64,000 nucleotides of DNA from an uncultured Gemmatimonadales bacterium (GCA_963850905.1 CAWKMU010000003.1:1536001-1600000); one strand, 5' to 3'; positions 8,124-50,351 are shown, counted from the first letter of the stretch. Notes: generated by a model not told the origin, from the sequence alone. Program-made: numbers and translations.

Positions 8124-8928
8124 TTGGTACCGCGCCGTCCCGAGAGCGGTAGCGCATTCTCAGACGCAGCAGATCAATGCCGGACCGAACGAAATCGAAG
8201 AATTTTACCTTTGAACCGCTCACGTCGCGCCATTCCCGAAGCGGGAGTTCTACGACCTCGTGTTCGGCATCAATGCCACAAAGACACTGCAACCGCGCGA
8301 GCATCTCCACGTCAAACGACCAGCGCGAGAGAAACGGAGATTCGAGCACGCGAGCCAGCGCAGAATCGACTCGGAAGAGCTTCGCCCCGCACTGGGTGTC
8401 GTAGACTGGAAGCCGCAGCGTGAGGGACGCAGCGGTTGCGAACACGCGTCCGGCGTAGTGCCGACGCGCGCGTCGGTCGATGGACCTGCCGAGGAGCCGG
8501 ACGCGCGCGCCAATGATCCAACGAAACTGGGGCGACGTCTCCATCACGGCCAGGAAGTCCTGCACGGCATGCAGTGGTGTGGCTAGGTCGGCATCCCAGA
8601 AGCCGGTGTAGCGGTACCCCGCGCGGACACATTCGAGCATGCCCGCTCGCACCGTCTCGCCTTTCCCCTGATTTCGCGGCTGCCGGAGCAGCGCGACGCG
8701 AGGTGCGAGCTCGGCGCTCAGTGATTCGATGAGTGCGACCGTTCCGTCCGTGCTGCCGTCATCGACGAACAGGAGATCCACGTCGGTCTGGGCCGTGATG
8801 AACGCCCGGATGCGCGGGGTGTCGAGTCGCGCGGCTTCGTTGTAGCAGGGGATGACGATACAGGTGCGCTCACCCAATGGTGACGGCGTGGCACGATCGG
8901 GTCCGGCCACTGCGTGACCGTCGGTCAT
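8113..8928 (-). CDS. GT2 polyprenol-phosphate glycosyltransferase (DPM/DPG-synthase-like)
   Basis: IVIPCYNE, FVDDGSTDGT, NQGKG, FWDADLATP, YDTQCGAKLF, WSFDVE, GSKV. Confidence 0.9.
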   Translation of the reverse strand: MTDGHAVAGPDRATPSPLGERTCIVIPCYNEAARLDTPRIRAFITAQTDVDLLFVDDGSTDGTVALIESLSAELAPRVALLRQPRNQGKGETVRAGMLECVRAGYRYTGFWDADLATPLHAVQDFLAVMETSPQFRWIIGARVRLLGRSIDRRARRHYAGRVFATAASLTLRLPVYDTQCGAKLFRVDSALARVLESPFLSRWSFDVEMLARLQCLCGIDAEHEVVELPLREWRDVSGSKVKFFDFVRSGIDLLRLRMRYRSRDGAVPNAR

Positions 8929-10790
8929 GACCTCTTGGGCCTCTCCACTCCTGGAATGCAGGGGCGCTGCTCGGCGGGGTGGCGCTCGTGCACCAGGTAC
9001 GCGACTGCGGAATCGCTGGGTGCGCCAGGCCGCTCGAGGGCTTCGGTCGCCAATCCGGAATCAGAGTCGATTCTTATCAAAGGCCAGCCGTTGTTGGCGA
9101 GGTGTGCCACGACGAGTCCCGAGTAGGAACACAACGGGCTCGACGCATCGCGGGGTGACGCACTGAGGTAGCCCCGTGCCTCGATGACCTGAAGGAAGTT
9201 GTATGTGTAAATGGCAAATCGGGGCGCACGGGGATCCAGGTATGCGGCCCGGTCCATGGGGAAGACGTACTCAATATCCGGGCGCTGTTGGTAGTGCAGG
9301 ATCGGCATGAAGTTGAGGAGGCTGGGCACGATGACGACGGCGTGCGGAGGTACCACCTTCTCGAGGCGAAGACCAGGGCGTTCGCCTGGATTGGCACTGT
9401 AGCCGGCCCAGATAGGGTATACGGCGAGCAGGGCAAACACGCTGGCCCAGACGGCCCGGAAGCGACGGTTCGATGGGGCGCGTGAGGCAGCGCTCTCGAT
9501 ATCATCGAACGCCGCGGTCGTGAGCTCCATCCCGTGTGCGAGGATGATGCTGATCCCGACCGCGGATGGCAGCATATACCGATCGACGAAGATCGGCATC
9601 ACCGCGTGCGACAGGAGGAACGCAGCGAAGGGCACACATACGATCGACGTGGCGACCACCAGCAACGGATCGTTCCTAGCCGCCGCGCGGAAACCACCCG
9701 CCCGGACGATCACAGACCCGAGTACCGCCAGCAGGATGACGAGCATGAGCAGACCACTGCTTTGCTTCAGGAGGTCACTCGTTGTTCCGCCGGTGTGTAG
9801 GAAGCGGAAGGGGAGCCAGCTGATGCCTGCTGCTGCAACCGCAATGCCGATGGCGGCGACGATGCGTTTTCGGTGCCCCGCGTCTACGATCCGACCCACT
9901 GTGGGACCACGCGTCGTGGCGAAGAAACCGCCGAGGGCAGACAGCAGGACGACCAGGATGACGACAATGGGCAGCCGGCGCATCGCGACGCCAAAGACTT
10001 CCATCAGGGCGCCCGGCGTCGGCGCCGTAAGCCACCCCTGGGGACGCGCCAGGTCAGCGGCACGTCGCAGGGACGGCAGCCACGGAATGAAGGTGGCCCA
10101 CCCCGCAAGGATCGCGGCATAGCTCGCCGGACGCCATCGACCGGCGCAGCGATCCGCGATGACCCAGGCGGCCAGGATCGCCGCGCTGTACATCGCCCCG
10201 TACACGTGTGTGTATACGAGCGCGGCGTGCGTCGCGAAGATCGCGGCCAGCAGCTTCCACGACGTTCGCTCGGGCGTGAGAACGGCACGAGCGTACAAGT
10301 ACGTCGCGAGCGCGACGAGGGCGGTGAGGAATCCGTAGAAGCGGGCTTCGGAGACGTGGTACAGCACGAGCGCCGACAGTGGGAACGCGACCAACGCGCC
10401 AACAGCGGTGGCCTGGAGCGAGTATCGGCGACGGAGTGTCAGCCAGACGAGGACGAGGGCGACGATCATCATCGCGCAGGAGGGCGCACGGAGCGCGAGC
10501 TCACTCTGGCCGGCTGCGCGCGCCCAGAGCCAGAGGAGTGTGTGGTAGAGCGGTGGCGCGCTTTCGCCGCCTGCGGCGATCGTGCCGATCATGTGTGAGA
10601 GCGACGGGTCCGCCACGAGGTTCGCGGAATTGACCTCGTCGTACCAGAAGAATTTTTTTCCGGACGTGAGCACCGAGCAGACTGCCAGCGACGTGGCGGT
10701 GATGCCGAGCAACGCCCAGTCACCCCGACTCCATTGGTCACGAGTCGGAGGAACCATCTCGTCGTGTGCAGCTTGTGGCGGGGTGGGCAT
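8925..10790 (-). CDS. GT-C (PMT-like) membrane glycosyltransferase
   Basis: KFFWYDE, PPLYH, ELALRAPS, SEARFY, YTHVYG, many TM segments. Confidence 0.82.
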   Translation of the reverse strand: MPTPPQAAHDEMVPPTRDQWSRGDWALLGITATSLAVCSVLTSGKKFFWYDEVNSANLVADPSLSHMIGTIAAGGESAPPLYHTLLWLWARAAGQSELALRAPSCAMMIVALVLVWLTLRRRYSLQATAVGALVAFPLSALVLYHVSEARFYGFLTALVALATYLYARAVLTPERTSWKLLAAIFATHAALVYTHVYGAMYSAAILAAWVIADRCAGRWRPASYAAILAGWATFIPWLPSLRRAADLARPQGWLTAPTPGALMEVFGVAMRRLPIVVILVVLLSALGGFFATTRGPTVGRIVDAGHRKRIVAAIGIAVAAAGISWLPFRFLHTGGTTSDLLKQSSGLLMLVILLAVLGSVIVRAGGFRAAARNDPLLVVATSIVCVPFAAFLLSHAVMPIFVDRYMLPSAVGISIILAHGMELTTAAFDDIESAASRAPSNRRFRAVWASVFALLAVYPIWAGYSANPGERPGLRLEKVVPPHAVVIVPSLLNFMPILHYQQRPDIEYVFPMDRAAYLDPRAPRFAIYTYNFLQVIEARGYLSASPRDASSPLCSYSGLVVAHLANNGWPLIRIDSDSGLATEALERPGAPSDSAVAYLVHERHPAEQRPCIPGVERPKRS

Positions 10791-10834
10791 GCTGACGTCA
10801 ATTGGCCGTGATTCCAGCCACTTGCAAGGTCTGT

Positions 10835-10850
10835 TGCAAGATGCCGGCCC
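10835..10850 (-). promoter_or_regulatory. Putative sigma54 (-24/-12) promoter of the GT-C operon
   Basis: Minus strand GGGCCGGCATCTTGCA = GG-N10-GC with GGC and TTGCA, about 45 bp upstream of ATG 10790. Confidence 0.55.
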
Positions 10851-11064
10851 GCGTCCAAAGCGTGGATCACACCTGTGGGGCTGCGCGGCCGCCCCTTACC
10901 AATTCATCAAACGACGCTATGTGTTTGCCGATGGTCACGCGACACGCAGCCGCGCACCAGCACCGAGGAAGCGGCGTGGTGCGCTCGCCTGGCGTACAGC
11001 TTCTAGCCGGCAAGGCCCGAGACCTGCAGCCAACGGCACTCGTGAAACGGTGTTCTCACTGACG

Positions 11065-11565
11065 ATGTCTCCTGCGTCACCGCGTCCGCTGCGCGTGCTT
11101 TTTCTGTGCACCGGAAATGCTGTTCGCAGCCAGATGGCTGAGGCGCTGCTCAACTACAAGGGGCGAGGGCGATTTCGGGCTGAGAGTGCCGGATCGACGC
11201 CGACGGCGTGCGTTCATCCGCGTACAGTCGAGACGTTGCGCCAAGGGGGCATCGACTGGGAAGGCCGAACGCCGCGAGCCGTGAAGGGGCTCGAGGGCGA
11301 ATGCTGGGATCTCGTGATAACGGTGTGCGATCGAGCAATGGAATGCTGCCCAGTGTTTGCTGGTCACGCGGTGATCGCGCATTGGGGCATGGACGCGCCG
11401 GTGGATGTACAGGGGCCGGAAGACGAGCAGCAGCGAGCTTTTCAGGCCGCATTGGCAACGCTCTCGCACCGGATAGACCGGTTGGTCGGATTGCCGATCG
11501 AGGGACTTGATCGTTCCGTCCTCGCGGAGCATTTGCAAGTGATCGGCACCGAGGAAGAGGGTTAG
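11065..11565 (+). CDS. ArsC/low-molecular-weight protein-tyrosine-phosphatase family protein
   Basis: VLFLCTGNAVRSQMAE (CX5R loop), SAGS, VITVCD...CP, HWG. The ORF-track extension back to 10582 overlaps another gene and is not credible. Confidence 0.85.
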   Translation: MSPASPRPLRVLFLCTGNAVRSQMAEALLNYKGRGRFRAESAGSTPTACVHPRTVETLRQGGIDWEGRTPRAVKGLEGECWDLVITVCDRAMECCPVFAGHAVIAHWGMDAPVDVQGPEDEQQRAFQAALATLSHRIDRLVGLPIEGLDRSVLAEHLQVIGTEEEG

Positions 11566-11938: not shown

Positions 11939-14863
11939 ATGCTGACAAAGCGACGAAAGACGAGACGTCAACTTGATGTCCAGCATCAAGTGTCAGCAGC
12001 ACGCGTGTACTGGATTACCGGATTGTCGGGCGCTGGCAAGACGACCGTTGGACGCGAGTTGGTGAAGCGCCTGCATGCGGCTGGTCGCCCAGTCATTTTC
12101 CTCGACGGCGATGCGTTGCGCGCGGCGATCGCGGAAGATCTCGGCCACACTGCTGCCAACCGCCGTCGATCGGCAATGCGCAACGCGCGGCTGTGCCACT
12201 TGCTTGCTGCACAGGGTACGGACGTCGTGTGCGCCACGATCTCGCTGTTGCACGAGGTCCAGCGGTGGAATCGGGAGAACATCCCCGGCTATCGGGAGAT
12301 CTACCTTCAGGTCCCGATGGAGGAGTTGCGGCGTCGGGATAGCAAGGGCATCTACGCCCGGGCCGAGTGTGGCGATGCGCGTGACGTCGTTGGTCTTGAC
12401 GTGCCCGCGGAGGCTCCGGAGGCGCCCGATCTGGTCCTCGACAATTATGGGGCGCTCGACGTTGTGACGGCGGTCGAGCGCATCTTGGCGGTATGCGGCA
12501 CGCCGAATGGCAAGCGTGCTGGAACGCCCCTGACGCGTGTCGTCGCGTTCAAAACGAAGGCAGAGTCGTTGGAAGCGCTGGCGCCCGTGCTGCGGAATGG
12601 GCGGGTCCTGCCACAAGTCCGATTCTCCGTTGCCGCCTGGCGCTCGGACGCCGCTGGCGTGTTGGCTTCGATCAATGCGGCGCCGTGGGGTTCGGGTTCC
12701 GTCATCGTGCGGAGCAGTGCACGGAGCGAGGACGGCGCCACGAGCTCTCAAGCCGGGAAGTACGATTCCCAACTCGGCGTCGCCGGCATCGAGGCAGTGG
12801 CACAGGCCATCGACCGGGTGGTTGCCTCGTTCGCAGACGAGGGCGATGACGACGACCAGATCTTCGTGCAGCCGATGCTCGACCGCGTCGCCATGGCCGG
12901 AGTGGCCTTCTCCCGCAATCCCAGTGGTGGCGCCTATTTCGTCATCAATTACGACGACCGTTCCGGGCTCACGGATCGCGTGACGGCCGGCGTCGGGTAC
13001 AATCTCGAAACTTTTTTCTGTCTCAAATCGCGTCCGGAGGCGTGCCCGGCTTCGCTGGTGCCGGTGATCGCGCTCGTGACCGAGCTCGAGAGTCTCCTAG
13101 CGTGCGACGCGATCGACGTGGAATTTGCGATCGGCGAAGACGGGCAGTTGTACCTGCTCCAAGTCCGCCCGCTCCTCGTGGACCGCCGGGGACAGGTGGC
13201 CGACAAGGAGATCGACGCCGCAGTCGCCGATGTCGCGCGCAAAGTCGAGCTCCTCAGCCGCCCGCACCCGTACCTGCACGGCAGCCGGACGATATTCGGG
13301 GTCATGCCGGACTGGAACCCTGCCGAAATCGTCGGAGTGCGGCCCTATCCCCTCTCGTTGTCGCTCTATCGCGAGCTGATCACCGACGCGATCTGGGCGT
13401 ATCAGCGTGACAACTACGGGTACAAGAACCTTCGCAGTTTCCCGTTGCTGGTGAGTTTTCACGGACTGCCGTACATCAATGTGCGTGTGAGCTTCAACTC
13501 GTTCATCCCACACGACGTCCCCGACGATCTCGCCGGCCGGCTGGCGAACTACTACATCGACCGACTCCTTGCCGAGCCGCATCTCCACGACAAGGTCGAA
13601 TTCGAGATCATCTTTTCCTGCTACACGCTCGATTTGCCGAAGCGAATCGCGACGCTCGCCGAGCACGGGTTCTCTTCGGACGACGTGGCCGAGCTCTCGA
13701 CCGCTTTGCGGCGTCTCACCAATCGGATCATACACGGCGACACCGCACTGTGGCGGCGGGATCGCGCCAAGATCGACCTATTGGCACAGCGTCTTCCGGT
13801 GATCTGCAACGCCGACATCGACAAGGTCGGCCGCATCTACTGGCTGATCGAAGACTGCAAGCGATACGGCACGCTACCCTTTGCGGGTCTCGCGCGGGCG
13901 GGTTTCGTCGCGGTCCAGCTGCTCCAATCGTTCGTCGACGTGGGCGTTTTTAGTGCCGATGAACGTGCGACATTCATGGCGAGCGTCGATACCGTCGGAT
14001 CGCGGATCGGGCACGACTTTGCGCGTCTTCCCAAGGCGGACTTCCTCGCGCGCTATGGCCACCTCCGGCCGGGCACGTACGACATCCTATCTCCCCGCTA
14101 CGACGAGGCACCCGACCTCTATTTCGACTGGTCGAGCGCGCGACCGACGTCGCCCCCGCCGCCTCGTTTCGCCCTGTCGATCGAGCAGCTGCGCCGCATC
14201 GAGCACCTGCTCAAGGAGCACGAGCTCGACATCGACGTCTTGAGCCTGATCGAGTTCATCAAGGCCGGCATCGAGGGTCGCGAATACGCGAAGTTCGTCT
14301 TCACGCGCAGTCTGAGCGACGCGCTGACGTTGATCAGGCGGCTGGGCGAGGATCATGGTCTGTCGGCGGAGGATTGCGCGTTTCTGAGTTACGATGCCAT
14401 CCGCACGCTCTATAGCGAGAGTTGCTCGGTGCGAGAGGCGTTGCTGGAGAGCGTCGCCCACGGCCGGGAGCGGCACGCGCTCACACGAAGTCTGGTACTG
14501 CCGCCCCTCATCGCGTCGGCAGAGGATGTGTTTGCCTTTCACCTGCCGCCGAGTCAGCCCAATTTCATTACGCGCAAGAGCGTTACCGCGCCGGTGGCGT
14601 CGCTCAGCGACCCTCCCGAAAGCTTCGCCGGACGCATTCTGTTCTTGCCGAGTGCAGATCCGGGCTTCGACTGGATCTTCACGCGTGGCATCAGCGGATT
14701 CGTCACGCAATTCGGCGGCGCCAACTCACATATGGCGATCCGCGCCAGTGAGCTCGGCATCCCTGCGGTGATCGGGGCCGGTGAGGCCATGTATCAGCCG
14801 TGGAGTGTCGCGCACACGCTGTGTCTGGACTGCACGAGCCAGAGGGTTTTGGTCATCGCATGA
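11939..14863 (+). CDS. Fusion: APS-kinase-like (Cj1415-like cytidine diphosphoramidate kinase) + PEP-utilizer/PPDK-like (Cj1418-like L-glutamine kinase)
   Basis: N-terminal WITGLSGAGKTT, LDGD, RRDSKGIY (CysC fold); then TKAESL, VRSSARSED, AGKY, FVQPML, DVEFA, LLQVRPL (ATP-grasp); FGVMPDWNPAEI, YGHLRPGTYDI; C-terminal GGANSHMAIRASELGIPAVIG (phospho-His domain). True start may be GTG 11990. Confidence 0.85.
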   Translation: MLTKRRKTRRQLDVQHQVSAARVYWITGLSGAGKTTVGRELVKRLHAAGRPVIFLDGDALRAAIAEDLGHTAANRRRSAMRNARLCHLLAAQGTDVVCATISLLHEVQRWNRENIPGYREIYLQVPMEELRRRDSKGIYARAECGDARDVVGLDVPAEAPEAPDLVLDNYGALDVVTAVERILAVCGTPNGKRAGTPLTRVVAFKTKAESLEALAPVLRNGRVLPQVRFSVAAWRSDAAGVLASINAAPWGSGSVIVRSSARSEDGATSSQAGKYDSQLGVAGIEAVAQAIDRVVASFADEGDDDDQIFVQPMLDRVAMAGVAFSRNPSGGAYFVINYDDRSGLTDRVTAGVGYNLETFFCLKSRPEACPASLVPVIALVTELESLLACDAIDVEFAIGEDGQLYLLQVRPLLVDRRGQVADKEIDAAVADVARKVELLSRPHPYLHGSRTIFGVMPDWNPAEIVGVRPYPLSLSLYRELITDAIWAYQRDNYGYKNLRSFPLLVSFHGLPYINVRVSFNSFIPHDVPDDLAGRLANYYIDRLLAEPHLHDKVEFEIIFSCYTLDLPKRIATLAEHGFSSDDVAELSTALRRLTNRIIHGDTALWRRDRAKIDLLAQRLPVICNADIDKVGRIYWLIEDCKRYGTLPFAGLARAGFVAVQLLQSFVDVGVFSADERATFMASVDTVGSRIGHDFARLPKADFLARYGHLRPGTYDILSPRYDEAPDLYFDWSSARPTSPPPPRFALSIEQLRRIEHLLKEHELDIDVLSLIEFIKAGIEGREYAKFVFTRSLSDALTLIRRLGEDHGLSAEDCAFLSYDAIRTLYSESCSVREALLESVAHGRERHALTRSLVLPPLIASAEDVFAFHLPPSQPNFITRKSVTAPVASLSDPPESFAGRILFLPSADPGFDWIFTRGISGFVTQFGGANSHMAIRASELGIPAVIGAGEAMYQPWSVAHTLCLDCTSQRVLVIA

Positions 14864-15462
14864 AGGCCGTGGCCGTCACCCAGCGGGTAACGATCGTTCC
14901 AGCCTATGGCGAGCGCCGTGACTCTTTGGATCAAGCATGGACGAGGTTCTTGGCTGCCTGCGGACTGCTTCCCGTGTTGCTCCCGAATGTCACCGAGGTG
15001 GCGCTGGCCATGTGCGAGAGGGCGGGCATCGGCGGGTTGTTGTTGACCGGAGGTAACGACCTGGCGGTGCTTGGCGGCGATGCCCCGGAACGCGACGCCG
15101 TGGAAAGTGCCCTGCTCGATCTGGCCGAGCAGCGTCGCCTGCCGGTCTTGGGTGTCTGTCGCGGTATGCAAGTGATTCAGCAGCGGTTCGCGGTTCAACT
15201 ACGGCGCATCGAAGGGCATGTGGCGCAACGTCAGGTGATCCGAGTCGACGGCGACTCACGAGAGGTCAACAGCTACCATTGCTTTGGCGCAGTTGACTCG
15301 AAACCGCCGCTCAATGTCTGGGCGGTCGCGGACGACGGCGTCGTCAAGGCGATCCGACATTCGACCCGACCCGTGACCGGGATCATGTGGCACCCGGAGC
15401 GCGTGGTCCCGTTCGCGCCGGCGGACGTGCAGCTCGTCCGACAGGTGTTCGGAGTCACATGA
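14860..15462 (+). CDS. Class I glutamine amidotransferase-like gamma-glutamyl hydrolase (Cj1417-like gamma-glutamyl-CDP-amidate hydrolase)
   Basis: TQRV...YGERRDSLDQAW, LTGGND, GVCRGMQ (Cys nucleophile), NSYH, MWHPER. ATGA overlap with the upstream gene. Confidence 0.85.
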   Translation: MKAVAVTQRVTIVPAYGERRDSLDQAWTRFLAACGLLPVLLPNVTEVALAMCERAGIGGLLLTGGNDLAVLGGDAPERDAVESALLDLAEQRRLPVLGVCRGMQVIQQRFAVQLRRIEGHVAQRQVIRVDGDSREVNSYHCFGAVDSKPPLNVWAVADDGVVKAIRHSTRPVTGIMWHPERVVPFAPADVQLVRQVFGVT

Positions 15463-16238
15463 TCCGCGCCGTGATCCTCGCGGCCGGCCGCGGCAGCCGC
15501 ATGGGCCATCTGTGTGATGACCGTCCCAAGTGCCTGGTCGAGCTCGGAGGCAAACGGTTGATCGAACGCCAGATCGCTGCGCTGCGGCGCGGTGGCGTAG
15601 ACGAGATTGGCGTTGTCCGCGGCTACCGCGCAGAGATGATCACCAGTCCGAGTCTTTCCTATTTCGCCAACGACCAATGGGCCGAAACGAACATGGTGAT
15701 GTCACTGGCCACGGCCGCTCGCTGGCTGCGGTCAGGGCCGGTCATCGTGAGCTACGCGGACATTTTCTATCGTAGCGAGCTGGTACGCAGCCTGGTCGCG
15801 GCTCACGGGCGACTGGTCGTCACGTACGACCGAGACTGGCGCCGGCTGTGGACGCGTCGTTTCGCCGATCCTTTGGCCGATGCCGAAACTTTTCGGACCG
15901 ACGGCGAAGGCCGGTTGCTGGAGATCGGCGGCAAGACGTCGCGCATCGAGGAGATTGAGGGGCAGTACATGGGCCTCTTGAAATTCACTCCACCAGCGTG
16001 GAGTGCGGTCGAGGGCTTGCTTGGTGTGCTCGAGACGCCGATTCGCGATCGGCTCGATCTGACAGGACTGCTGCGCCGGCTGCTGGCGGCACGCGAGCTC
16101 CCAATAGGGGCGCTTTCCACCGATGGTCAATGGGGCGAAATCGACAATCCGGAAGACGTAGCGTTGTACCAGCGCATGGTCACTGCAGGCGAGCTCCGCC
16201 TCGAGGAGACGTCTGACAGTGAGGTGATGCCACAATAA
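15459..16238 (+). CDS. NTP-transferase, LicC-like (Cj1416-like CTP:phosphoglutamine cytidylyltransferase)
   Basis: ILAAGRGSRM, RPKCL, WAETNMVMSL, SYADI, DPLADAETF, GQYMGL, WGEID. ATGA overlap. Confidence 0.85.
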   Translation: MIRAVILAAGRGSRMGHLCDDRPKCLVELGGKRLIERQIAALRRGGVDEIGVVRGYRAEMITSPSLSYFANDQWAETNMVMSLATAARWLRSGPVIVSYADIFYRSELVRSLVAAHGRLVVTYDRDWRRLWTRRFADPLADAETFRTDGEGRLLEIGGKTSRIEEIEGQYMGLLKFTPPAWSAVEGLLGVLETPIRDRLDLTGLLRRLLAARELPIGALSTDGQWGEIDNPEDVALYQRMVTAGELRLEETSDSEVMPQ

Positions 16239-16302
16239 TGGCGATGCGTTCCGAGCCCACCGTGACAACTTCCGACCAGAGGGGTTGCCAGTGTCAGTAA
16301 CG

Positions 16303-17070
16303 ATGAAACACGGCGATTTCACGCAGGTAGCCGGCGATTACGCCCGGTTTCGGCCGAGTTACGCGCCCCAGGTCGCGACTGCCATCCTCCGTTACGTCGG
16401 GCGGGACCCAGCCAGCATCAATGCGGCCGACATCGGCGCCGGAACCGGCATTTGGACGCGGATGCTCGCAGCGCAGGGTCTGCATTCCATCGTCGCCGTG
16501 GAACCAAATGCCAACATGCGTGCGCAAGGGATCGAGACCTCGCGGGGGAGCGACATTGTGTGGCGCGATGGTTCGGCCGAAGCGACGGGATTGCCGGACC
16601 GGTCAGCCGATCTTGTCAGTATGGCGTCGTCATTTCACTGGGCCGATTTCGACAAGGCCTGCGACGAATTTCACCGTATCCTGCGGCCGGGTGGCGTCTT
16701 CGTCGCCTTGTGGAATCCGCGTCTCATCGAGGTGAACCCATTGCTCGTCGAGATCGAGGCGCAGATCACGCGGCTCAAATCTGACGTGCGCCGTGTATCA
16801 TCAGGCCGCTCTGGCATCACCGAGCGGCTGACCGATATGCTGAGCGAGAAACCGCAATTCGCTGAGGTGCTGTATCTCGAAGGTAGGCACCGCATGTCCC
16901 AGACGCCGAATCAGTATCTCGGGGCGTGGCGCTCGGTGAATGATCTCCAAGTGCAATTGGGCCCTGAACTATTCCGGAAGTTCTTGGAATTCACCGAGGA
17001 GCGCGTGTCAGGTCTGACGGCTATCGAGACAACCTATGTGACCCGGGCCTGGATCGTGCGGCGCGCCTAG
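16303..17070 (+). CDS. Class I SAM-dependent methyltransferase (Cj1419/Cj1420-like)
   Basis: MKHGDFT, RPSY, DIGAGTGIW, VEPNANMR, MASSFHW, LWNPR, AWRSVND. Start could be GTG 16291 (GAGGGG at 16279). Confidence 0.85.
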   Translation: MKHGDFTQVAGDYARFRPSYAPQVATAILRYVGRDPASINAADIGAGTGIWTRMLAAQGLHSIVAVEPNANMRAQGIETSRGSDIVWRDGSAEATGLPDRSADLVSMASSFHWADFDKACDEFHRILRPGGVFVALWNPRLIEVNPLLVEIEAQITRLKSDVRRVSSGRSGITERLTDMLSEKPQFAEVLYLEGRHRMSQTPNQYLGAWRSVNDLQVQLGPELFRKFLEFTEERVSGLTAIETTYVTRAWIVRRA

Positions 17071-17181
17071 GCGGGCTCCTCCGCGGTAGATCTATCCGCG
17101 AAGCTCTGAGTCGCCTGGCTTGCCCACAGCGATCACAGGAAGTGCGGGCTGGCGGCTCCGTCGGCAAAGTTGAGCGTGTCC

Positions 17182-18213
17182 TCACCTACTCAGACGATAG
17201 CCGATATTCTCAATCCTTTTTTGGGTTTCCGCATTGAGATCATGCATAAAGCTTCTGAATCGAGGAACCTTCTCTTCAACAGCCAAAAAGCCGTACGGCT
17301 TGCTCCTCGGACGGGCCAGACATAGGCGGCTCACATCAAGATCGACTGACATGACTTCGACGATCTTAGAAAACTCCTTGACCGGATCGATCATGAAGTC
17401 CTCGAGCCGCAACGAGAGGGTCGCGGATCGGATGTAAAGCTCCGTCTCCTCAACAAATTCCGGGAACGACAAGAATGGCGGGCCTGGTGCGGCTGCGAAG
17501 AAACGCGGGTCCCCTTCGGCAAAGGCCTTGAATTCCGAAAAATTCTGGTCCAAATCGAGACACAGATCGTCAGCGTTTTTGTACACCTGCGTGATCCCGG
17601 GGACCATGGCTTTGTCGCGAACATACCTCCGCCAGAAGACCCAATTCGTCAGCAACGAATCCAGCGGGTGCCGGTAGACGAAGATCAGATCGGCAATGCG
17701 CGACTGGACCGCCTCCAATACACGGCTCGTCAACTCTGGCAACGCCTGAGCGCGAGACACGTATTTGATCGTGGCGTGTTCGGTGTAGATCATGGACGTC
17801 GGAAGTGGACGAAATCGCATCTCATGCCGGAGATATTTCGCCCGTTCGCCAATGTGCTGCAGCAGCAGTTCATAGACATACCAACGCCCACTGCCGAACA
17901 GTCCGACGAGATACGCTGTTCTGTCGTTCCCCGGATTATGGAGTTTCCAATACCAGTCCTTATTCACCAACCGGTGGCGAACGCTTTCCAGATGGTCGCG
18001 AGGGGTTTTGCGCGCGAATTCTGCCCAGTTCTCGCGCACGCTTCGCAATTTGTCTTGGCGCGATTTCCCGGTGAATCTGATGAGCCTTCGAAATACGGAT
18101 GGCCGCATCCGCTCCGGGCGGCCGCGAGCGCCCTTGTACGTTGATCTTACCCCTCCGTCATGGTCGACCCACGCCACGGCGTTCTTGGCCGACGGTGTCG
18201 TGTGGTCGCTCAC
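17182..18213 (-). CDS. Sulfotransferase-fold (P-loop) protein
   Basis: YLVGLFGSGRW (5'-PSB-like loop), FVYRHPLDSLLT (3'-PB-like RxPxD), LRLEDFMIDP, C-terminal IENIGY. Start may be ATG 18108. Confidence 0.65.
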   Translation of the reverse strand: MSDHTTPSAKNAVAWVDHDGGVRSTYKGARGRPERMRPSVFRRLIRFTGKSRQDKLRSVRENWAEFARKTPRDHLESVRHRLVNKDWYWKLHNPGNDRTAYLVGLFGSGRWYVYELLLQHIGERAKYLRHEMRFRPLPTSMIYTEHATIKYVSRAQALPELTSRVLEAVQSRIADLIFVYRHPLDSLLTNWVFWRRYVRDKAMVPGITQVYKNADDLCLDLDQNFSEFKAFAEGDPRFFAAAPGPPFLSFPEFVEETELYIRSATLSLRLEDFMIDPVKEFSKIVEVMSVDLDVSRLCLARPRSKPYGFLAVEEKVPRFRSFMHDLNAETQKRIENIGYRLSR

Positions 18214-20023: not shown

Positions 20024-20151
20024 GTTGTCCCGATGTGGGCTCCCGCGACAACGGCAAACCCGGCGAAAGCCGGCGACGCAAAGCTCTGGAGGCTACCGCT
20101 CACGCAGCAACACCGCGTGAGTCATGCCAGTCCGGCTACCGAACGGACAAC
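20024..20151 (+). ncRNA. c-di-GMP-I (GEMM) riboswitch, copy 1
   Basis: GGCAAACCCGGCGAAAGCCGGCGACGCAAAGC core with GNRA loop; P3 with GGCTAC/ATGCC receptor-like element and CTCACGC/GCGTGAG stem; 3' ACCG; closing helix GTTGTCC(20024)/GGACAAC(20145). Ends just before SD AGAGGA. Confidence 0.92.
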
Positions 20152-20168
20152 TCACAGAGGACACAGCC

Positions 20169-21524
20169 ATGCGCACTGCGCACGACTGGGGCCGAGCTAT
20201 AGGCCGTCCCCGCACGTCCGCACCGGTAAGCCGCAAGTCGTACTACTTCCGCGCGATCGTCTGCGGCGCAGCTGCGGCACTCGCTGCCTGCGACAACTCC
20301 GCGAAGAACACCACCAATCCAATGGATCCGGTCGCCGCGAGTGGTAGCGGTACCTTCCAGGACGAAGCGGTCCTCGTGATGTATCACGGTGTGGCGTACC
20401 CGCAGGTCAACGTGAAGCCCTCGGCCAACGTCGACATGAAGGTCGGCGAACAGTCGACGTTTACGGCGCGCTTGAACGAGCCCAGTGGCGACGCGTGGAC
20501 CTCGTGCTGCTCGACGTGGAAGAGCTCTGATGCGAGTGTCGCGTCGGTGAGCGTCACGGGTTACGGTGTTCGCGATGGCGAGCGCGGAGCCGTTGTCGCG
20601 CACAAGTCGGGCAAGGCGACGATCACGGTTACGACGCAGAGCGGAACGAAGGGGACGCTGGATGTCACTGTTGGTGATGGCTCCTCTGGAACCGGCTCCG
20701 GTGGCTCGAGCTCCGGCGGCAGTGGCGGGTCAGGCGGCGGCTCTGGGTCACCCCCCTCGAAGACCCCCGCGAAGAGTCCGACCGCGCCACCACCCAGCGG
20801 CAGCTACCATGAGCCGTCGGGCTTCGCGACGCAAATCAACACCGGGTCGATCTCATCGACGCGTGCGGTGAACGTCCTCACCCCGTCGTCGACCAGCCCG
20901 ACTGGTGGCTCGAGCGGAAATCTCACCGCCGCGCCCGGAGGCGGTCTCCGTATGTGGTACCGTCCGAACCTAGTGGCGGGCAACTCGCCGGTCCGATTTG
21001 GGTTCGACATCCCGTCATCGGGAAGCGGCTGGTACTATCAGCGAATGCAGGTCCGTTTCTCCTCCAACTGGACCAACGGGAATAACCCGCTCGTCAAGTT
21101 GTGCGAGCCGCGAACCATGCAATCCGGCAGCCCCACGGGTCCAGACGAGAACCATGTCATCTCGGCATTCGCCAGCGGCGCGCCGACCAACGGCTATCTG
21201 GGGGTGCTGTTGCAGGGTCCCGACAACCATTTCAGGGATCTGACCGAGGAGTCGGCCGGCATGGGGAATCTGAGTGACGGGAATTGGCACACAGTGGAAG
21301 TGCTCTTCAGCCCAGAGTCGTCACCCGGTGCTGGAAATGGCAGCTACCAGGGGTGGGTCGACGGCAAGGAGGTCGCCAACTATCGCAACGTCCAGTGGCT
21401 CGCGGCGGGGAACCGAGCGGGTTGGCCCTACCTGATGTTCGATCCGGTCTACGGGGGAACGAAGAGCGCCCCAGCGCACACCATGTACTGGGACGTCAAC
21501 AACATTTTCGTGGCTACACGCTAG
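20169..21524 (+). CDS. Lipoprotein: Ig-like (Big_2) domain, Gly/Ser/Pro linker, C-terminal beta-jelly-roll (polysaccharide-lyase/ConA-like) domain; paralog 1
   Basis: Lipobox LAA-C; WKSSDASVASVS...GKATITVT; C-terminal WHTVEV...GNGSYQGWVDG...FDPVYGG...YWD. SD AGAGGA precedes ATG 20169. Confidence 0.8.
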   Translation: MRTAHDWGRAIGRPRTSAPVSRKSYYFRAIVCGAAAALAACDNSAKNTTNPMDPVAASGSGTFQDEAVLVMYHGVAYPQVNVKPSANVDMKVGEQSTFTARLNEPSGDAWTSCCSTWKSSDASVASVSVTGYGVRDGERGAVVAHKSGKATITVTTQSGTKGTLDVTVGDGSSGTGSGGSSSGGSGGSGGGSGSPPSKTPAKSPTAPPPSGSYHEPSGFATQINTGSISSTRAVNVLTPSSTSPTGGSSGNLTAAPGGGLRMWYRPNLVAGNSPVRFGFDIPSSGSGWYYQRMQVRFSSNWTNGNNPLVKLCEPRTMQSGSPTGPDENHVISAFASGAPTNGYLGVLLQGPDNHFRDLTEESAGMGNLSDGNWHTVEVLFSPESSPGAGNGSYQGWVDGKEVANYRNVQWLAAGNRAGWPYLMFDPVYGGTKSAPAHTMYWDVNNIFVATR

Positions 21525-21546
21525 TTCGTAGCACCTGACGCGACAT

Positions 21547-21581
21547 AAGAAGGGCAGGTCGAACTACGACCTGCCCTTCTT
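21547..21581 (+). terminator. Perfect 15-bp hairpin, probable terminator
   Basis: AAGAAGGGCAGGTCG-AACTA-CGACCTGCCCTTCTT just after the paralog 1 stop. Confidence 0.75.
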
Positions 21582-21837
21582 GCATCGCACAGAAGATCCG
21601 ACGCCGATTGTTGCACGACGCAGCACTCAGCGCGATGCCGGGTCGCGACGCGACGTAGTGAACCCGTGACGCGCATCGGTGAGAATGGACGTTGATCAAC
21701 TCGGTCGCGCGGATGATGTGTTGACGTCAAACGTTTTGTCGCGACTCACTCGCGTGCGCGCACATCAACGAACTCCATGCGATGCCCCACTGAACGCGCT
21801 TCTGAGACGAACCCAGCGAAAATCTTTCGTAAAGGGG

Positions 21838-21866
21838 TTGCGTATCAGACTGTTGATGGGCATCGT
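21838..21866 (+). promoter_or_regulatory. Putative sigma70-type promoter of unit 2
   Basis: TTGCGT-N17-CATCGT, followed by the same CGCGAC/GTCGCG hairpin as unit 1. Confidence 0.55.
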
Positions 21867-21892
21867 ACGCGCGACAACTGAACGTCGCGCTG

Positions 21893-22016
21893 GTTGTCCA
21901 GTGTGGGCACCCGCGACAACGGCAAACCCGGCGAAAGCCGGCGACGCAAAGCTCTGGAGGCTACCGCTCACGCACGCTGCCGCGTGAGCCACGCCAGTCC
22001 GGCTACCGAACGGACA
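21893..22016 (+). ncRNA. c-di-GMP-I (GEMM) riboswitch, copy 2
   Basis: Near-identical to copy 1; differences are mostly in the P3 loop. Upstream of SD AGAGGA and ATG 22036. Confidence 0.92.
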
Positions 22017-22035
22017 TCTCACAGAGGACACAGCC

Positions 22036-23388
22036 ATGCGCATTGCGCACGACTGGGGCCGAGCTTCGGGCCGTCCCCGCACGTCCGCCAAGGTAAGCCG
22101 AAAGTCGTCCTACGCCCGCGCGCTGCTATGTAGTGCAGCGGCTGCGCTCGCAGCGTGCGACAATTCCCCGAAAAGCGCCGCGAATCCGACGGATCCAGTC
22201 AACGCGATGGGTTCGCGTGAGAATGAGGCGGTTGGCACAGAGGTTCGCGGCGTGGCCTACCCACTGGTCACCGTGAAGCCATCGGCTAGCGTCGACATGA
22301 GTGTCGGCCAGCAGTCGACGTTCTCGGCACTGTTGAGCGAGCCGAATGGGAATTCATGGACGTCGTGCTGCTCGACGTGGACGAGTTCCGATGCGAGTAT
22401 CGCGTCGGTAAGCGCGACCGGCTACGGGGTTGAGGATGGCGAGCGTGGGATTGTTGTCGCGCACAAAGCCGGTACCGCAACGATCACGGTCACGACTCAA
22501 AGCGGAACGAGCGGCACGCTGAACGTCACCGTCGGAAGCGAGTCATCTGGGTCAGGGTCTGCTGGTGCCAGCTCCGGCGGCACTGGTGGCTCGAGTGGTG
22601 GCTCGGGGTCGGGTGGGACGCCAACGGCGAGTCCCTCGCCACCGCCACCGAGCGGTAGCTACCACCAGCCGTCGGGTTTCGTCCAGCAGGTCAATATGCC
22701 ATCGATTACATCGACTGCAGCGTTTTCCAACTTCAGTCCTACCAGCACCAGCTCGACCGGCCAGTGGAGCGGGAACCTGACTACAGTGCCTGGCGGATCC
22801 GGGTTGAGGATTACGTATCGCCCGAACCTCATGGCTGGAGGGTCTCCCGTCCGCTTCGGAATCTCTCTGGCATCAGCCGGATCGGGTTGGTACTACCAGC
22901 GCATGAAGATTCGCTTCTCGTCGAACTGGACGAATGCAAATAACCCGGTGGTGAAACTGTGCGAGCCCCAAACGGAGCAGGAGGGCAATCCGGCGGGGCC
23001 GGACGAAAACCATGTCATCTCGGCATTCGTCCACGCCGATCCGACTCAGAGCTACCTGACCGTTCTGTTGCAAGGCCCTGATAGCCACTTCCGGGATCTG
23101 ACAGAGCAACCGGTCGCTAACCCGGCTGCAAACTTGAGCGACGGGAATTGGCACACGATGGAGGTGCTGTTCGGTCCCGAGTCGTCGCCGGGTGCCGGGA
23201 ACGGAACGTACACCGGGTGGGTCGACGGCACGCAGGTCGCAAGCTACACCAACGTACAATGGCTCGCGGCCGGGAACCGAGCGGGTTGGCCGTACCTCTT
23301 GTTCGATCCGGTCTACGGCGGCATGGACAGTAGCCCGCCGTACATCATGTACTGGGACTTCGACGCCTTGTACGTCAGCACGCGCTAA
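22036..23388 (+). CDS. Lipoprotein Big_2 + lyase/ConA-like domain; paralog 2
   Basis: Lipobox LAA-C; co-linear and highly similar to paralog 1. Confidence 0.8.
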   Translation: MRIAHDWGRASGRPRTSAKVSRKSSYARALLCSAAAALAACDNSPKSAANPTDPVNAMGSRENEAVGTEVRGVAYPLVTVKPSASVDMSVGQQSTFSALLSEPNGNSWTSCCSTWTSSDASIASVSATGYGVEDGERGIVVAHKAGTATITVTTQSGTSGTLNVTVGSESSGSGSAGASSGGTGGSSGGSGSGGTPTASPSPPPPSGSYHQPSGFVQQVNMPSITSTAAFSNFSPTSTSSTGQWSGNLTTVPGGSGLRITYRPNLMAGGSPVRFGISLASAGSGWYYQRMKIRFSSNWTNANNPVVKLCEPQTEQEGNPAGPDENHVISAFVHADPTQSYLTVLLQGPDSHFRDLTEQPVANPAANLSDGNWHTMEVLFGPESSPGAGNGTYTGWVDGTQVASYTNVQWLAAGNRAGWPYLLFDPVYGGMDSSPPYIMYWDFDALYVSTR

Positions 23389-23457
23389 ATGTCTCCCGGA
23401 CAACAATCCTATAGCATGTACCGGGACGTCGATCAGATCCTTGTCAGCACGCGCTGA
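23389..23457 (+). pseudogene. Remnant duplicate of the paralog 3' end (MSPGQQSYSMYRDVDQILVSTR*)
   Basis: In frame directly after the paralog 2 TAA. Matches the paralog 3 terminus YTMYWDVDQIYVSTR* at DNA level (catgtac.gggacgtcgatcagatc...gtcagcac.cgctga). Confidence 0.7.
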
Positions 23458-23496
23458 TCGATGGCGCGGTCGGTGACCGTGGCACGTTAGAAGTTG

Positions 23497-23533
23497 GCGA
23501 GGGAGCAGGTCAAACATTGACCTGCTCCCTCGC
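23497..23533 (+). terminator. Perfect 17-bp hairpin, probable terminator
   Basis: GCGAGGGAGCAGGTCAA-ACA-TTGACCTGCTCCCTCGC then GCTCTTTC. Shares the GCAGGTC/GACCTGC core with the unit 1 hairpin. Confidence 0.7.
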
Positions 23534-23993
23534 GCTCTTTCGCGACACTTGTCTCACTGCGGTTCGACGTTGCGAAACCGTCTCAAGACCCGCTGCTTTC
23601 CGGCGACCGCGAGGTCGCCGACACCAGCGGGTGAGTGCCGCCTCCGACCACCGGTTGACATCGGCCGGCGCGGGTATCTCGCGCACCGTTCCCAACCGAC
23701 CTCTCCAGTCGTCGCTCTTCCGCGCTCGACTAGCGGGATTCCCCGCCGATCGGCACGGCTAAGGGAGGGTGCGAAGCCAGTTCAGCGGACAATTTGACTG
23801 ATCGTAGGCCTACGCCCCCATTAATAGGGGCTGGCGCTGTTGAGTCCGCTTGCTTACGTTAACTGGTAGCAAGGCTTTGGGGACGGTCGCCCGGCTGGCT
23901 CGATGTCAGGTCAAACCGCCCGACCCCAACCACGGACCGAGCAAGCGGGAGACTTCTAGATCACAGAAATGATCGCGGTGCCCCCCGAGGGCC

Positions 23994-24092
23994 TGCGACA
24001 AAGGCAAACCCGGCGAAAGCCGGGGACGCAAAGCTACGAGGCTACGGTCTGCCCTCAGAGTCGGGCATGCTATGCCAGTCGGGCCGCCGAAC
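23994..24092 (+). ncRNA. c-di-GMP-I (GEMM) riboswitch, copy 3
   Basis: GCGACAAAGGCAAACCCGGCGAAAGCCGGGGACGCAAAGC...GGCTAC...TGCCC/GGGCA...TATGCCAG...GCCG. Upstream of SD GGAGGG and ATG 24109. Confidence 0.9.
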
Positions 24093-24108
24093 AGAGCTGG
24101 AGGGGATC

Positions 24109-26007
24109 ATGGACGCTGCGATCAAACATCGCAGGCTGGCGGTCGCCGCCATCTGTCTCGTGGTGGCGGGTGGCTTTGCATGCTTCCGAGGCGACTCCCT
24201 CGTCGACCCCCCGGGGACAGCAGGCTACCGACCTCCCGACCCCCACGTAACCGCTATCACGCTCGCGCCGACTTCAGTCAATGCGCCGACGGGCGCTCAA
24301 GTCCACATTTCGGCTGACCCTATTGGCCCTTCTGGCGCTCCCGTGGCGGCCGATGTCGTCGCTTGGGTGTCGTCCGACCCCGATGCCGCAACTGTGTCGG
24401 GCTCAGGGATGGTCTCGCTACTTCACCGGGGCAAAACGACGATTACCGCCATCGCGGACGGAGTGACGGCGTCCGTCGCAGCCGTGGCCGAGGCACCGCT
24501 GGCGGCTTCGATGACGGTCACGCCGAGCACCAGCTTGATCGAGGCGGGTCAGCAGGTGCAGCTGATCGCGGTCGCGTACGATGCAACCGGTTCCGTCGAC
24601 TCCGGCGTGACGGTAACTTGGTCGTCCTCAAACACGGGAACGGTATCGGTGTCCAGCGGGGGTCTGGTGACGGCGATCGCGGTCGGCGTGGCAACCATTA
24701 CGGCGTCATCCGGCAGTGTGCGCTCGACGGCGACGATCCAAGTCACCTCCTCTACACCCGCAGTGGCGACGGTATCGGTCGCGCCGAACACGTCGTCGCT
24801 TTATCCTGGGAGCAATGAGCAGTTGACGGCTACGCTAAAGGACGCGGCGGGCGACATCCTGGGTGGCATCCCCGTAGCATGGTCGACATCGAGCGCGGGT
24901 GTTGCTTCCATTTCCGCTAGCGGTGTCGCGTTGGCGAACGCCATCGGATCGGCAACCATAACTGCGACTGCTGGTGGACACAGCGGCACCGCGACAGTGG
25001 ACGTCACGGCTCCGGTCGTCGCGTCGGTGTCTGTCAACCCCAGTTCTGGAACGATTAGCATCGGGCAAATCGAGCAATTCACGGCCACTCCCCTCGACGC
25101 CCAAGGCGCGCGGCTGAGCGTTCAAGTTTCGTGGAGCTCTAGCGACCCGAGCATGGCGTCGGTGTCGGCGAGCGGCGCCGTAACGGGTGATGCGGCGGGA
25201 TCGGTCAGTATCACCGCATCAGCAGGCGGCGTCACCGGCGCCGCGGCGGTGACGGTGCAATCGGGGCCGCCTGGTGGGTACCACGAGCCCTCAGGCATGG
25301 CGACTCAGATCAACACGGGGCCGATTACGTCGACGAGCGTGGTGACCACCTTCAGCCCGTCCACGATGACCTCTACCGGTGAGTGGATTGGGAACCTGAG
25401 TCTTGTGCCGGGAGGGACTGGCCTTCGGCTGACGTACACCACGAGCCTCGCGGCTGGCAACTCGCCGGTGCGCTTTGGCCACGGAATCGCGTCCGCGGGG
25501 ACGGGTTGGTACTATCAGCGCATGAAGGTCCGTTTCTCGTCGAACTGGACCAACGGGAACAATCCAATCATCAAAATGTGTGAGCCGCGGACCGAGCAGA
25601 CTGGTAGCGGTACGGGGCCCAACGAGAACCATGTCATTGGCGGCTGGGCCGGCAGCGCTCCCACCAAGAGCTATCTAACGGTGTTGTTGCAAGGCCCGAA
25701 TAACAATTTCCGGGACCTGATCGAACAGCCGCAGAGTAATCCTCAAGCGAATATGAGTGACGGGAACTGGCACGTCATGGAGGTGCTCTTCGGTCCCGAG
25801 TCATCCCCGGGTGCCGGCAATGGGACGTACCAGGGCTGGGTCGACGGCGTGCAAATCGCGAATTACACCAACGTGCTCTGGCTCGCGCCCGGCAACAATG
25901 TCGGCTGGCCATACCTCATGTTCGACCCGGTGTACGGTGGGACCAAGAGCAGTCCGCCCTATACCATGTACTGGGACGTCGATCAGATCTACGTCAGCAC
26001 CCGCTGA
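24109..26007 (+). CDS. Lipoprotein with about four Big_2 Ig-like repeats + lyase/ConA-like domain; paralog 3
   Basis: Signal peptide ending GFA-C; four W(x)SS...V..G.V...G..TITA repeats; same C-terminal domain (YHEPSG...GWYYQRMKVRFSSNW...YWDVDQIYVSTR). Confidence 0.82.
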   Translation: MDAAIKHRRLAVAAICLVVAGGFACFRGDSLVDPPGTAGYRPPDPHVTAITLAPTSVNAPTGAQVHISADPIGPSGAPVAADVVAWVSSDPDAATVSGSGMVSLLHRGKTTITAIADGVTASVAAVAEAPLAASMTVTPSTSLIEAGQQVQLIAVAYDATGSVDSGVTVTWSSSNTGTVSVSSGGLVTAIAVGVATITASSGSVRSTATIQVTSSTPAVATVSVAPNTSSLYPGSNEQLTATLKDAAGDILGGIPVAWSTSSAGVASISASGVALANAIGSATITATAGGHSGTATVDVTAPVVASVSVNPSSGTISIGQIEQFTATPLDAQGARLSVQVSWSSSDPSMASVSASGAVTGDAAGSVSITASAGGVTGAAAVTVQSGPPGGYHEPSGMATQINTGPITSTSVVTTFSPSTMTSTGEWIGNLSLVPGGTGLRLTYTTSLAAGNSPVRFGHGIASAGTGWYYQRMKVRFSSNWTNGNNPIIKMCEPRTEQTGSGTGPNENHVIGGWAGSAPTKSYLTVLLQGPNNNFRDLIEQPQSNPQANMSDGNWHVMEVLFGPESSPGAGNGTYQGWVDGVQIANYTNVLWLAPGNNVGWPYLMFDPVYGGTKSSPPYTMYWDVDQIYVSTR

Positions 26008-39792: not shown

Positions 39793-39859
39793 GACGCCGC
39801 CGGTCTCGGCGTTTGCGCGCGCCGCCGCTTCGGTCGTTCCGGACGGCGGTTCGGCGGGA

Positions 39860-49322: not shown

Positions 49323-49324
49323 GG

Positions 49325-50351
49325 TTACGCTCGAGAGTGACCCGCGGGCGCGGGAGCAGCCGTGAACGCAGCGGTCGTCGGATGTGACACCCGCCGGCGC
49401 GCGAGTGCCCCGCGCTCGTCGATCGCCCGCGCGTGGGTGCTCATGTTCACGAGACGGAAATGGCGCTGCAGAGCATGTACGACCCGGACGAACAGGTCTT
49501 TCTTGCGCGCGCTGGTCAAGTCCATGCCGGGGAAGAACCGCAGTGCGGGAGCCTGATCCCCACCGAGGAGATCGAGGGGGTGGAGCAGAAAACTCGGCTC
49601 GGTCCCCGTGAGGCGGCAGATCCCGAGTGCCGTCTCGAGATACCCCATCATGGCCGTCTCCGATACGCGGCTCAGATAGAGCAGATAACTCGAGATGGAA
49701 CGGCACCTTGATCCCCGGAATCGTCGTCACCGGGATCTCGAGGAGCGTGCGGCCCGAGGGCAGTGACCACCGGTACGGCCGCACTGGCCGGAGGCCGTCG
49801 CGCGCGCCGCCAAAGAGCGTCGCGCGCTCTTCACGCTGTGCGCGCGTGAGCCGGGCAGTCCAGAAGTAGTACGCGCGTGCGAGCGGGCCGAGATAGGTGG
49901 GGAGGGTAGACGCATCGTACAGGTATCCGCGGTCTACGAGGACCTCGAACAGCGCCGGACTCCAGCTGTATCCGGGGCCCCGAAATCCGAGCGTCCGCTG
50001 GCCCGTGGCCGCGTAGATTGCCGCTTCGGCGTCGGCGATCTCCTGTGCGACCCGCTCGGCCGAGTAGCGATTGAGCCAGGGCTCGTGCTCGAATGAGTGG
50101 TTGCCCAGCTCATGCCCTGCGGCGACAGCTGCGCGGAGATGCACGGCATTCGCGGGAACCACCGCATCGCACCCGACGACGAAGAACGTCAGCTGCACGC
50201 CGAGCTGATCAAGGACCGGGAGCACGGTCCCGAAAAAGGCGTCGTAGTACGACGGTCGCCGCTCCCATCCGGCGTCGCCGTGGGTCTTCATGTACGACCA
50301 TTGGTTGTCGACGTCGAGTGAGATGCTCGCGAGAGGCCGGGGGTCGTTCAT
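49325..50351 (-). pseudogene. Polysaccharide deacetylase with a +1 frameshift at ~49691
   Basis: SLDVDNQWSY, TFFVVG, HELGNHS, GFRGPG, EIPVTT...PFHL, then continues in another frame SYLLYL...LLHPLD...FFPGM (ORF 49325-49651). Confidence 0.8.

Follow-up and report, generated by a model that had tools for sequence, protein, structure and literature searches.

An open reading frame (ORF) at positions 17182-18213 of a 64-kb stretch of DNA from an uncultured Gemmatimonadales bacterium is predicted to encode a phosphoramidate transferase built on a sulfotransferase fold. The whole stretch, referred to here as the window, belongs to a genome assembly (G000) that is 82% complete. We put the probability at roughly two in three (0.68) that the encoded protein uses 3'-phospho-cytidine-5'-diphosphoramidate (3'-phospho-CDP-amidate) to decorate a surface sugar polymer, a reading that draws on homology, structure prediction and gene linkage. 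The neighbouring genes are expected from homology to make this compound, which is laid out like 3'-phosphoadenosine-5'-phosphosulfate (PAPS): in both, a 3'-phosphorylated nucleotide bears a tetrahedral group that can be transferred and that is linked through a 5'-phosphoanhydride. The gene and its four neighbours, here called the cassette, are as follows:

17182..18213, minus strand: candidate phosphoramidate transferase, 343 amino acids (aa), GTG start, of an unnamed family mostly of Acidobacteriota
11939..14863, plus strand: fused kinase, 974 aa, with an N-terminal Cj1415-like adenosine 5'-phosphosulfate (APS)-kinase domain and a C-terminal Cj1418-like L-glutamine kinase
14800..15462, plus strand: Cj1417-like class I glutamine amidotransferase-fold hydrolase (Pfam Peptidase_C26, GATase)
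15387..16238, plus strand: Cj1416-like nucleotidyltransferase of the CTP:phosphoglutamine cytidylyltransferase type (NTP_transf_3, 80.3 bits)
16285..17070, plus strand: class I S-adenosylmethionine-dependent methyltransferase, candidate phosphoramidate O-methylase in the Cj1419/Cj1420 role (Methyltransf_11, 66 bits)

By homology, the four plus-strand genes correspond to Cj1415 plus Cj1418, Cj1417, Cj1416 and Cj1419/Cj1420 of the Campylobacter O-methyl phosphoramidate (MeOPN) pathway. The fused kinase matches PF01583 at residues 23-168 (112.9 bits), PPDK_N and PEP-utilizers in Pfam, and both NF004508 (924.7 bits, cut-off 501) and NF004041 (175 bits, cut-off 127) in NCBIfam; its Cj1415-like domain is of the cytidine diphosphoramidate 3'-kinase type. 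For the hydrolase, the top NCBIfam match is NF045546 (gamma-glutamyl-CDP-amidate hydrolase) at 113.8 bits, which is under the cut-off of 250. As the original prediction had described, the transferase gene converges on this operon, with a gap of 111 bp between the end of the methyltransferase gene (17070) and that of the ORF (17182). An alternative start of the ORF exists at M36 (18108), but the long start is supported by an N-terminal AWVDHDG motif common to a paralog and other homologs. The surroundings of the transferase gene showed no promoter-like or terminator-like site.

In Campylobacter, N-phospho-L-glutamine is converted to CDP-glutamine, then to cytidine diphosphoramidate and finally to 3'-phospho-5'-cytidine diphosphoramidate (PMC6429109, 10.64898/2026.02.12.704994). 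The window's enzymes would follow the route established in Campylobacter jejuni, with L-glutamine kinase, cytidylyltransferase, hydrolase and 3'-kinase acting in that order.

Fold and motifs of the candidate transferase family

Searched by itself, the protein gave no Pfam match to a sulfotransferase (E-value up to 10; the only match was T2SSJ, E-value: 0.13), no NCBIfam family (E-value up to 1) and nothing from PDB with phmmer. It has 979 relatives at E-values up to 0.001 (116 representatives at 50% identity), and among the 120 relatives listed none had a Pfam domain or any name besides "hypothetical". The family's fold was identified in three ways. First, an AlphaFold (AF2) model was obtained with a mean pLDDT of 84 (above 90 over most of residues 99-340, with residues 1-48 of low confidence), and every row listed in a Foldseek search with this model was a sulfotransferase (E-values 1.4e-5 to 2.2e-4, with modest TM-scores of 0.30-0.45). 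Second, a VIA-align comparison, which is independent of Foldseek and covered 48,161 chains, ranked 21 chains of the sulfotransferase family first (Z 13.4-8.9) and P-loop kinases next (about Z 8); the top chain was SULT7A1 (5x2b; Z 13.4, rmsd 3.7, 210 residues aligned). Third, when a family profile was compared with PDB (E-value up to 10), 18 of the 19 matches were sulfotransferases, the best being LGS1 (E-value: 2.5e-4). Protein language-model look-alikes likewise point to sulfotransferases. In Pfam searches with 32 individual family members, nine matched Sulfotransfer_1 and three matched Sulfotransfer_3, all weakly (best E-values 0.0012 and 0.00066, respectively), and none reached a Pfam sulfotransferase gathering score. 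Based on the Foldseek, VIA-align and family-profile matches, the modelled protein has a sulfotransferase fold and a sulfotransferase-type 3'-phosphate motif, in agreement with the hallmarks originally proposed for it. The motifs discussed below are located as follows:

17881..17904, minus strand: P-loop-like GLFGSGRW (residues 104-111), flanked by strand 99-104 and helix 110-120
17776..17778, minus strand: invariant His146, closing strand 142-147 and lying after the P-loop but before the 3'-phosphate motif
17641..17673, minus strand: 3'-phosphate-binding motif RHPLDSLLTNW, residues 181-191, where strand 174-180 ends and helix 183-200 begins

In a family alignment of 32 sequences (22-74% identity to the query), G109, R110, H146, R181, E256 and E271 are invariant, while G104, G107, H182, P183, L184, D185, N190 and W191 are conserved in at least 90%. 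The YRHPLD motif that had first drawn attention to the gene (residues 180-185, window 17659-17676) is retained: HMMER profile alignments place RHPLDSLLtNW on REPKDVLVSYW of LGS1 and RNPRDVLVSGY of SULT2A1, and LRfEDf (the LR(L/F)ED motif) on LRYEDM. The canonical 5'-phosphosulfate loop of PAPS sulfotransferases is of the PKSGTT or RSGT type and bears a lysine or arginine. GLFGSGRW appears to occupy this loop position, with its placement relative to PKSGTT based on motif order and secondary structure and not on an alignment made by a tool. The loop is indeed altered, as had been noted for the window protein: the family carries GLFGxGR and has no Lys/Arg-Ser-Gly-Thr. In cytosolic sulfotransferases the catalytic histidine sits between the P-loop and the 3'-phosphate motif, and His146, judged by the same order and secondary structure, is a candidate catalytic base.

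The family resembles PAPS sulfotransferases (SULTs, StaL/Teg12, tyrosylprotein sulfotransferases, heparan sulfate 3-O-ST and NDST) in its fold, in its RxPxD...S/T and LR(L/F)ED motifs and in the order of P-loop, histidine and 3'-phosphate motif. It differs from them in that it has no Pfam membership, carries GLFGxGR in place of PKSGTT/RSGT, is represented here in a genus in which no PAPS-making genes were found and is tied to a cytidine phosphoramidate donor pathway. In the mechanism that we propose, R181 and T189 of the RxPxD...S/T motif would hold the 3'-phosphate of the donor and the GxGR loop would hold the 5'-diphosphoramidate, with Arg110 in place of the usual loop lysine. His146 would act as a base to activate a sugar hydroxyl on the undecaprenyl-linked repeat unit of the surrounding Wzx/Wzy locus, and cytidine 3',5'-bisphosphate would be released. 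The enzyme would be cytoplasmic; no transmembrane segment was predicted (maximum 19-residue Kyte-Doolittle mean 0.98) and the AF2 model has no long hydrophobic helix. The adjoining methyltransferase would make the O-methyl ester, either before or after transfer. If this mechanism is correct, it would explain in structural terms why the donor is, puzzlingly, phosphorylated at its 3' position, and would be an instance of a sulfuryl-transfer scaffold reused for phosphoryl-type transfer. A small, soluble and highly conserved enzyme (285-343 aa) would also make the transfer step directly testable in vitro.

In Campylobacter, transfer to the sugar is genetically assigned to Cj1421/Cj1422 and is described as work to come in PMC12409886. 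[quoted passage not shown] The window protein would share with Cj1421/Cj1422 the proposed reaction, the transfer of a (methyl)phosphoramidate group onto a surface-polysaccharide sugar, and it resembles them in its linkage to Cj1415-Cj1418-type donor genes and a methyltransferase and in the presence of multiple paralogs per genome. It is set apart from them, by hidden Markov models (HMMs) and by the published description, in being a 343-aa protein with no transmembrane segment and no match to DUF2972 or to NF058596 (CJJ1420_fam), which we take to be the NCBIfam family of the Cj1421/Cj1422 MeOPN transferases. In line with the original remark that no Cj1421/Cj1422-like transferase is recognizable in the window, neither NF058596 nor PF11186 was found there, elsewhere in its genome or in five other glutamine-kinase genomes, in searches that had no positive control anywhere. 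Papers retrieved for phosphoramidate together with sulfotransferase do not, in their titles and abstract openings, deal with such a transferase, and none in the literature searched contained Acidobacteria, phosphoramidate and glutamine kinase as joint terms.

Linkage to the donor genes across genomes

To place the family in its genomic context, one genome per species was scanned, which gave 147 relatives, and 79 loci were kept. These come mostly from Acidobacteriota metagenome-assembled genomes (MAGs); two are from Eremiobacterota-type MAGs, and Gemmatimonadales, Verrucomicrobia and Alphaproteobacteria contribute one each. Donor genes were sought at these loci by tblastn with the window proteins. 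Core donor genes were present within the examined flanks of 46 of the 79 loci. Where both flanks reached 8 kb or more, 33 of 50 loci had them, compared with 13 of 29 where less was available. In 31 of the 46 linked loci the distance to the closest donor gene was no more than 500 bp, and in 40 no more than 1500 bp. Four arrangements were seen, the convergent one of the window at 37 loci and three other forms at the remaining nine. Donor proteins of the related Acidobacteriota loci are 64-86% identical to those of the window; a Cj1416-like gene is kept with the cassette at 44 of the 79 loci (median identity 77%) and the methyltransferase gene at 43.

Twelve other window genes between 4786 and 30305 were each found at 0 of the 79 loci, which indicates that the four donor genes and the transferase gene travel as a unit, with the transferase gene as its sole non-biosynthetic member. 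Of 15 genomes examined because their copy lacks an adjacent operon, 11 encode a glutamine kinase elsewhere. The background frequency of glutamine kinase is far lower: it was present in 4 of 400 when other genomes from the phylum of genome G407 were sampled, and in 1 of 400 for the window's phylum. The expectation that homologs should accompany Cj1418-like genes is therefore borne out, by 46 of 79 loci and 11 of 15 further genomes against a background of 1%. At four loci (L079, L033, L057 and L060), two or three family copies lie within a single stretch of 15-21 kb. These tandem copies recall the Cj1421/Cj1422 pair and would fit acceptor-specific paralogs.

The window genome itself has a second family copy (G000:C3:684521-685372; L003:9411-10625, minus strand) that is 63% identical to the first. 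Its acceptor may be a different one, by analogy with Cj1421 and Cj1422 of Campylobacter. It lies outside any polysaccharide locus, next to a gene of the Phosphoesterase family (PF04185) and not far from one for a Ser/Thr kinase with TPR repeats. Some relatives are the C-terminal domain of proteins of 600-960 aa; 12 of the 18 long forms scanned had no Pfam match, P0124 consists of a methyltransferase, a GT2 glycosyltransferase and the family domain, and three others of 850-960 aa (P0126, P0137 and P0138) have weak AAA_16/NACHT-like N-termini. A profile search found no longer fused forms among proteins of 1125-3210 aa. The possibility that P0124 is a Rosetta-stone fusion was dropped, as its methyltransferase is only generically like that of the operon (24% identity).

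Linkage ties the family to the donor and to no acceptor. The family might use 3'-phospho-CDP-amidate or a derivative with a lipid, protein or small-molecule acceptor, or might hydrolyze or recycle the nucleotide in donor editing or salvage. The variable genes that flank the loci, the position of the second copy beside a phosphoesterase-family gene and the fusion of some relatives to ATPase-like regions instead of glycan enzymes would all be compatible with such a role. We consider it unlikely, because the window cassette sits inside a 64-kb Wzx/Wzy locus, because P0124 joins the family domain to a GT2 glycosyltransferase and a methyltransferase, and because the only known biological use of the donor is glycan decoration in Campylobacter (PMC9561416, PMC12409886). 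Transfer to a surface glycan would mean that phosphorus-nitrogen (P-N) decoration of sugars occurs beyond a single genus of pathogens, in soil bacteria that are abundant.

PAPS supply and alternatives to phosphoramidate transfer

In the window genome, the APS-kinase domain of the fused kinase is the only one; two other PF01583 matches cover the P-loop alone. No ATP sulfurylase (Sat, PF01747; CysD, TIGR02039) was found in the window, as first noted, or in the genome. Because this assembly is only 82% complete, the searches were repeated on ten genomes of the genus, four of which are 92-98% complete. Sat and CysD were each found in 0 of 10, and PF01583 matches occurred in three, all of the low-scoring Cj1415-like class, with canonical APS kinase in 0 of 10. 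From these gene contents, the window organism appears unable to make PAPS. As a separate observation, sulfate activation seems to be missing from the genus altogether, and one may ask where these bacteria get their sulfur.

The Cj1415-like kinase class is present in 45 of 50 genomes that carry the transferase family. In 25 of the 50 it is the only class, with scores of 84-134 bits (G841, which is among them, carries an additional split copy whose type is uncertain), and three have no APS-kinase match at all, which argues that PAPS is not the general donor of the family. The proposal that homologs would not be tied to cysDN or sat is in keeping with the ten genus genomes and with these 25 family genomes that lack canonical CysC.

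Several observations weigh against phosphoramidate transfer by this family. Canonical CysC (187-238 bits) is present in 22 of the 50 family genomes, so that PAPS is available there. No donor genes were found in the examined flanks of 33 of the 79 loci, including 17 of the 50 with full flanks. Of the 15 genomes with orphan copies, four MAGs whose completeness is not given yielded no glutamine kinase, and three of these four have no APS-kinase-type gene of any sort. Operon-adjacent and orphan copies are mixed on the family tree (27 changes, compared with 28.9 for shuffled labels), so that no operon-specific clade can be defined. The family was found in none of five randomly sampled glutamine-kinase genomes (G216, G435, G585, G787 and G806) and is therefore not a general partner of the pathway. 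Loss of the loop lysine could mean a different chemistry or no catalysis. Finally, the incompleteness of the window genome and the lack of a positive control in the NF058596 and PF11186 searches qualify the absence of a canonical MeOPN transferase, which had been named at the outset among the findings that would refute a new transferase and of which no example was detected.

The first of these points would suit an ordinary PAPS-dependent polysaccharide sulfotransferase, with sulfate and phosphoramidate as separate decorations made through one cassette. The fold and 3'-phosphate motif are those of PAPS enzymes, some orphan-copy genomes yielded no glutamine kinase, and sulfotransferases are frequent in polysaccharide loci. 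We nonetheless judge this quite unlikely: neither type of ATP sulfurylase nor canonical APS kinase was found in any genus genome, half of the family genomes have only the Cj1415-like class, the loop Lys/Arg is replaced by an invariant GxGR, every family member falls below the Pfam sulfotransferase cut-off and linkage to the donor genes persists through four rearrangements.

The missing loop lysine, the incomplete genome and the uncontrolled canonical-family searches would instead accommodate a non-catalytic or regulatory nucleotide-binding protein, the real transferase being another gene (an unassembled Cj1421-type gene or a glycosyltransferase). This is very unlikely in our estimation. His146, Arg110, Arg181, Glu256 and Glu271 stay invariant even where identity falls to 22%, as would be expected if the active site is conserved; no other non-biosynthetic gene travels with the cassette; and tandem duplicates of up to three copies at several loci are as expected of acceptor-specific transferases.

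Other candidate transferases beside the pathway, cassette origin and the surrounding locus

Among the five sampled glutamine-kinase genomes, the Cj1415-like kinase gene adjoins the glutamine kinase gene in four, and other candidate transferases lie beside the pathway. In G806, a 419-aa protein (L090:12238-13497) has a Sulfotransfer_3 match of 28.9 bits (cut-off 27), a canonical GRSGS loop and an RDPYE motif; its assignment as a sulfotransferase comes from the Pfam match and motifs. In G585, a 413-aa protein (L091:8019-9260) belongs to a set of homologs of which 19 of 64 match PF06990, and its model (pLDDT 87.7) has an Ig-like N-terminal domain and a domain matching heparan sulfate 6-O- and 2-O-sulfotransferases (Z 14.4 and 14.2). 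Both proteins directly adjoin the Cj1415-like kinase or glutamine kinase of a phosphoramidate operon. They are like the window's family in this position and in being of the sulfotransferase type, but unlike it in having no detectable sequence relation: hhalign against the family profile gave probabilities below 1%, and it was not significant for any of the three candidate transferases compared from other loci. Because both genomes have canonical CysC, PAPS is also a possible donor for these two proteins. G216, a genome of the same family, has the donor genes, among them a Cj1415-like kinase that stands as a gene of its own, and lacks any gene of the sulfotransferase type. Directly upstream of these genes it encodes a protein of 437 aa (L086:6991-8304) that weakly matches Glyphos_transf and is TagF-like, which is possibly a different kind of phosphoramidate transferase using a CDP-type donor.

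Judged from these gene neighbourhoods, the GxGR family is one of several candidate phosphoramidate transferases. The idea that a sulfotransferase fold was repurposed for phosphoramidate transfer is supported by the fold, motif and linkage evidence as something we infer from sequences and models; in view of the five sampled genomes, it is narrowed to this family as one candidate among several. At least three families of the sulfotransferase type, unrelated in sequence, have members adjoining the pathway, and this independent recurrence speaks for the proposed role. As a tentative extension, to which we give somewhat less than even odds, the sulfotransferase fold may be the general scaffold of biological phosphoramidate transfer, with at least three unrelated sulfotransferase lineages recruited to cassettes that hold the Cj1415-like 3'-kinase, and this may be why the donor carries its 3'-phosphate. 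P-N-decorated exopolysaccharides, so far known from Campylobacter, would then be common among soil Acidobacteriota and neighbouring groups.

The transferase gene is foreign to the sample of its own phylum, as the family was found in 0 of 400 other genomes sampled there. In a family tree of 91 sequences, the window copy nests among Acidobacteriota, while the second copy is sister to a Gemmatimonadales sequence (support 99). G+C content dips to 0.586 at window 16001-18000, compared with about 0.63. Tree placement, the G+C dip, the identity of the donor proteins to those of Acidobacteriota and the rarity of the family and of the glutamine kinase in the window's own phylum together suggest that the five-gene cassette (window 11939-18213) was acquired horizontally. 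As part of the tentative extension above, the cassette would move between phyla: the window's donor proteins are 77-86% identical to Acidobacteriota counterparts, while the second copy groups with a Gemmatimonadales relative.

The entire window is a Wzx/Wzy-type polysaccharide locus with many GT2, GT4 and GT-C genes. Its other features include the following:

10582-11565: low-molecular-weight phosphatase
31590-32996: Wzy_C
38233-39936: flippase
57563-58585: priming Bac_transf
61068-63548: Wzc-like kinase

Three genes in a row at 20124-26007, midway through the locus, encode proteins with Big_2 Ig-like repeats, one of which has a weak polysaccharide-lyase match; these may be secreted proteins that process or anchor the polymer. 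Two unusual fusions were also identified: a polysaccharide deacetylase with an asparagine synthase (47442-50351, 969 aa) and a polysaccharide deacetylase with DUF3473 and GT2 (51900-53900, 666 aa). Both hint that the polymer also contains sugars that are amidated or de-N-acetylated. Lastly, four PMT_2 (GT-C type) genes are clustered near the cassette (2951-4687, 4786-6519, 7299-8123 and 8925-10790), and this density of lipid-linked-donor glycosyltransferases adjoining it is unusual.

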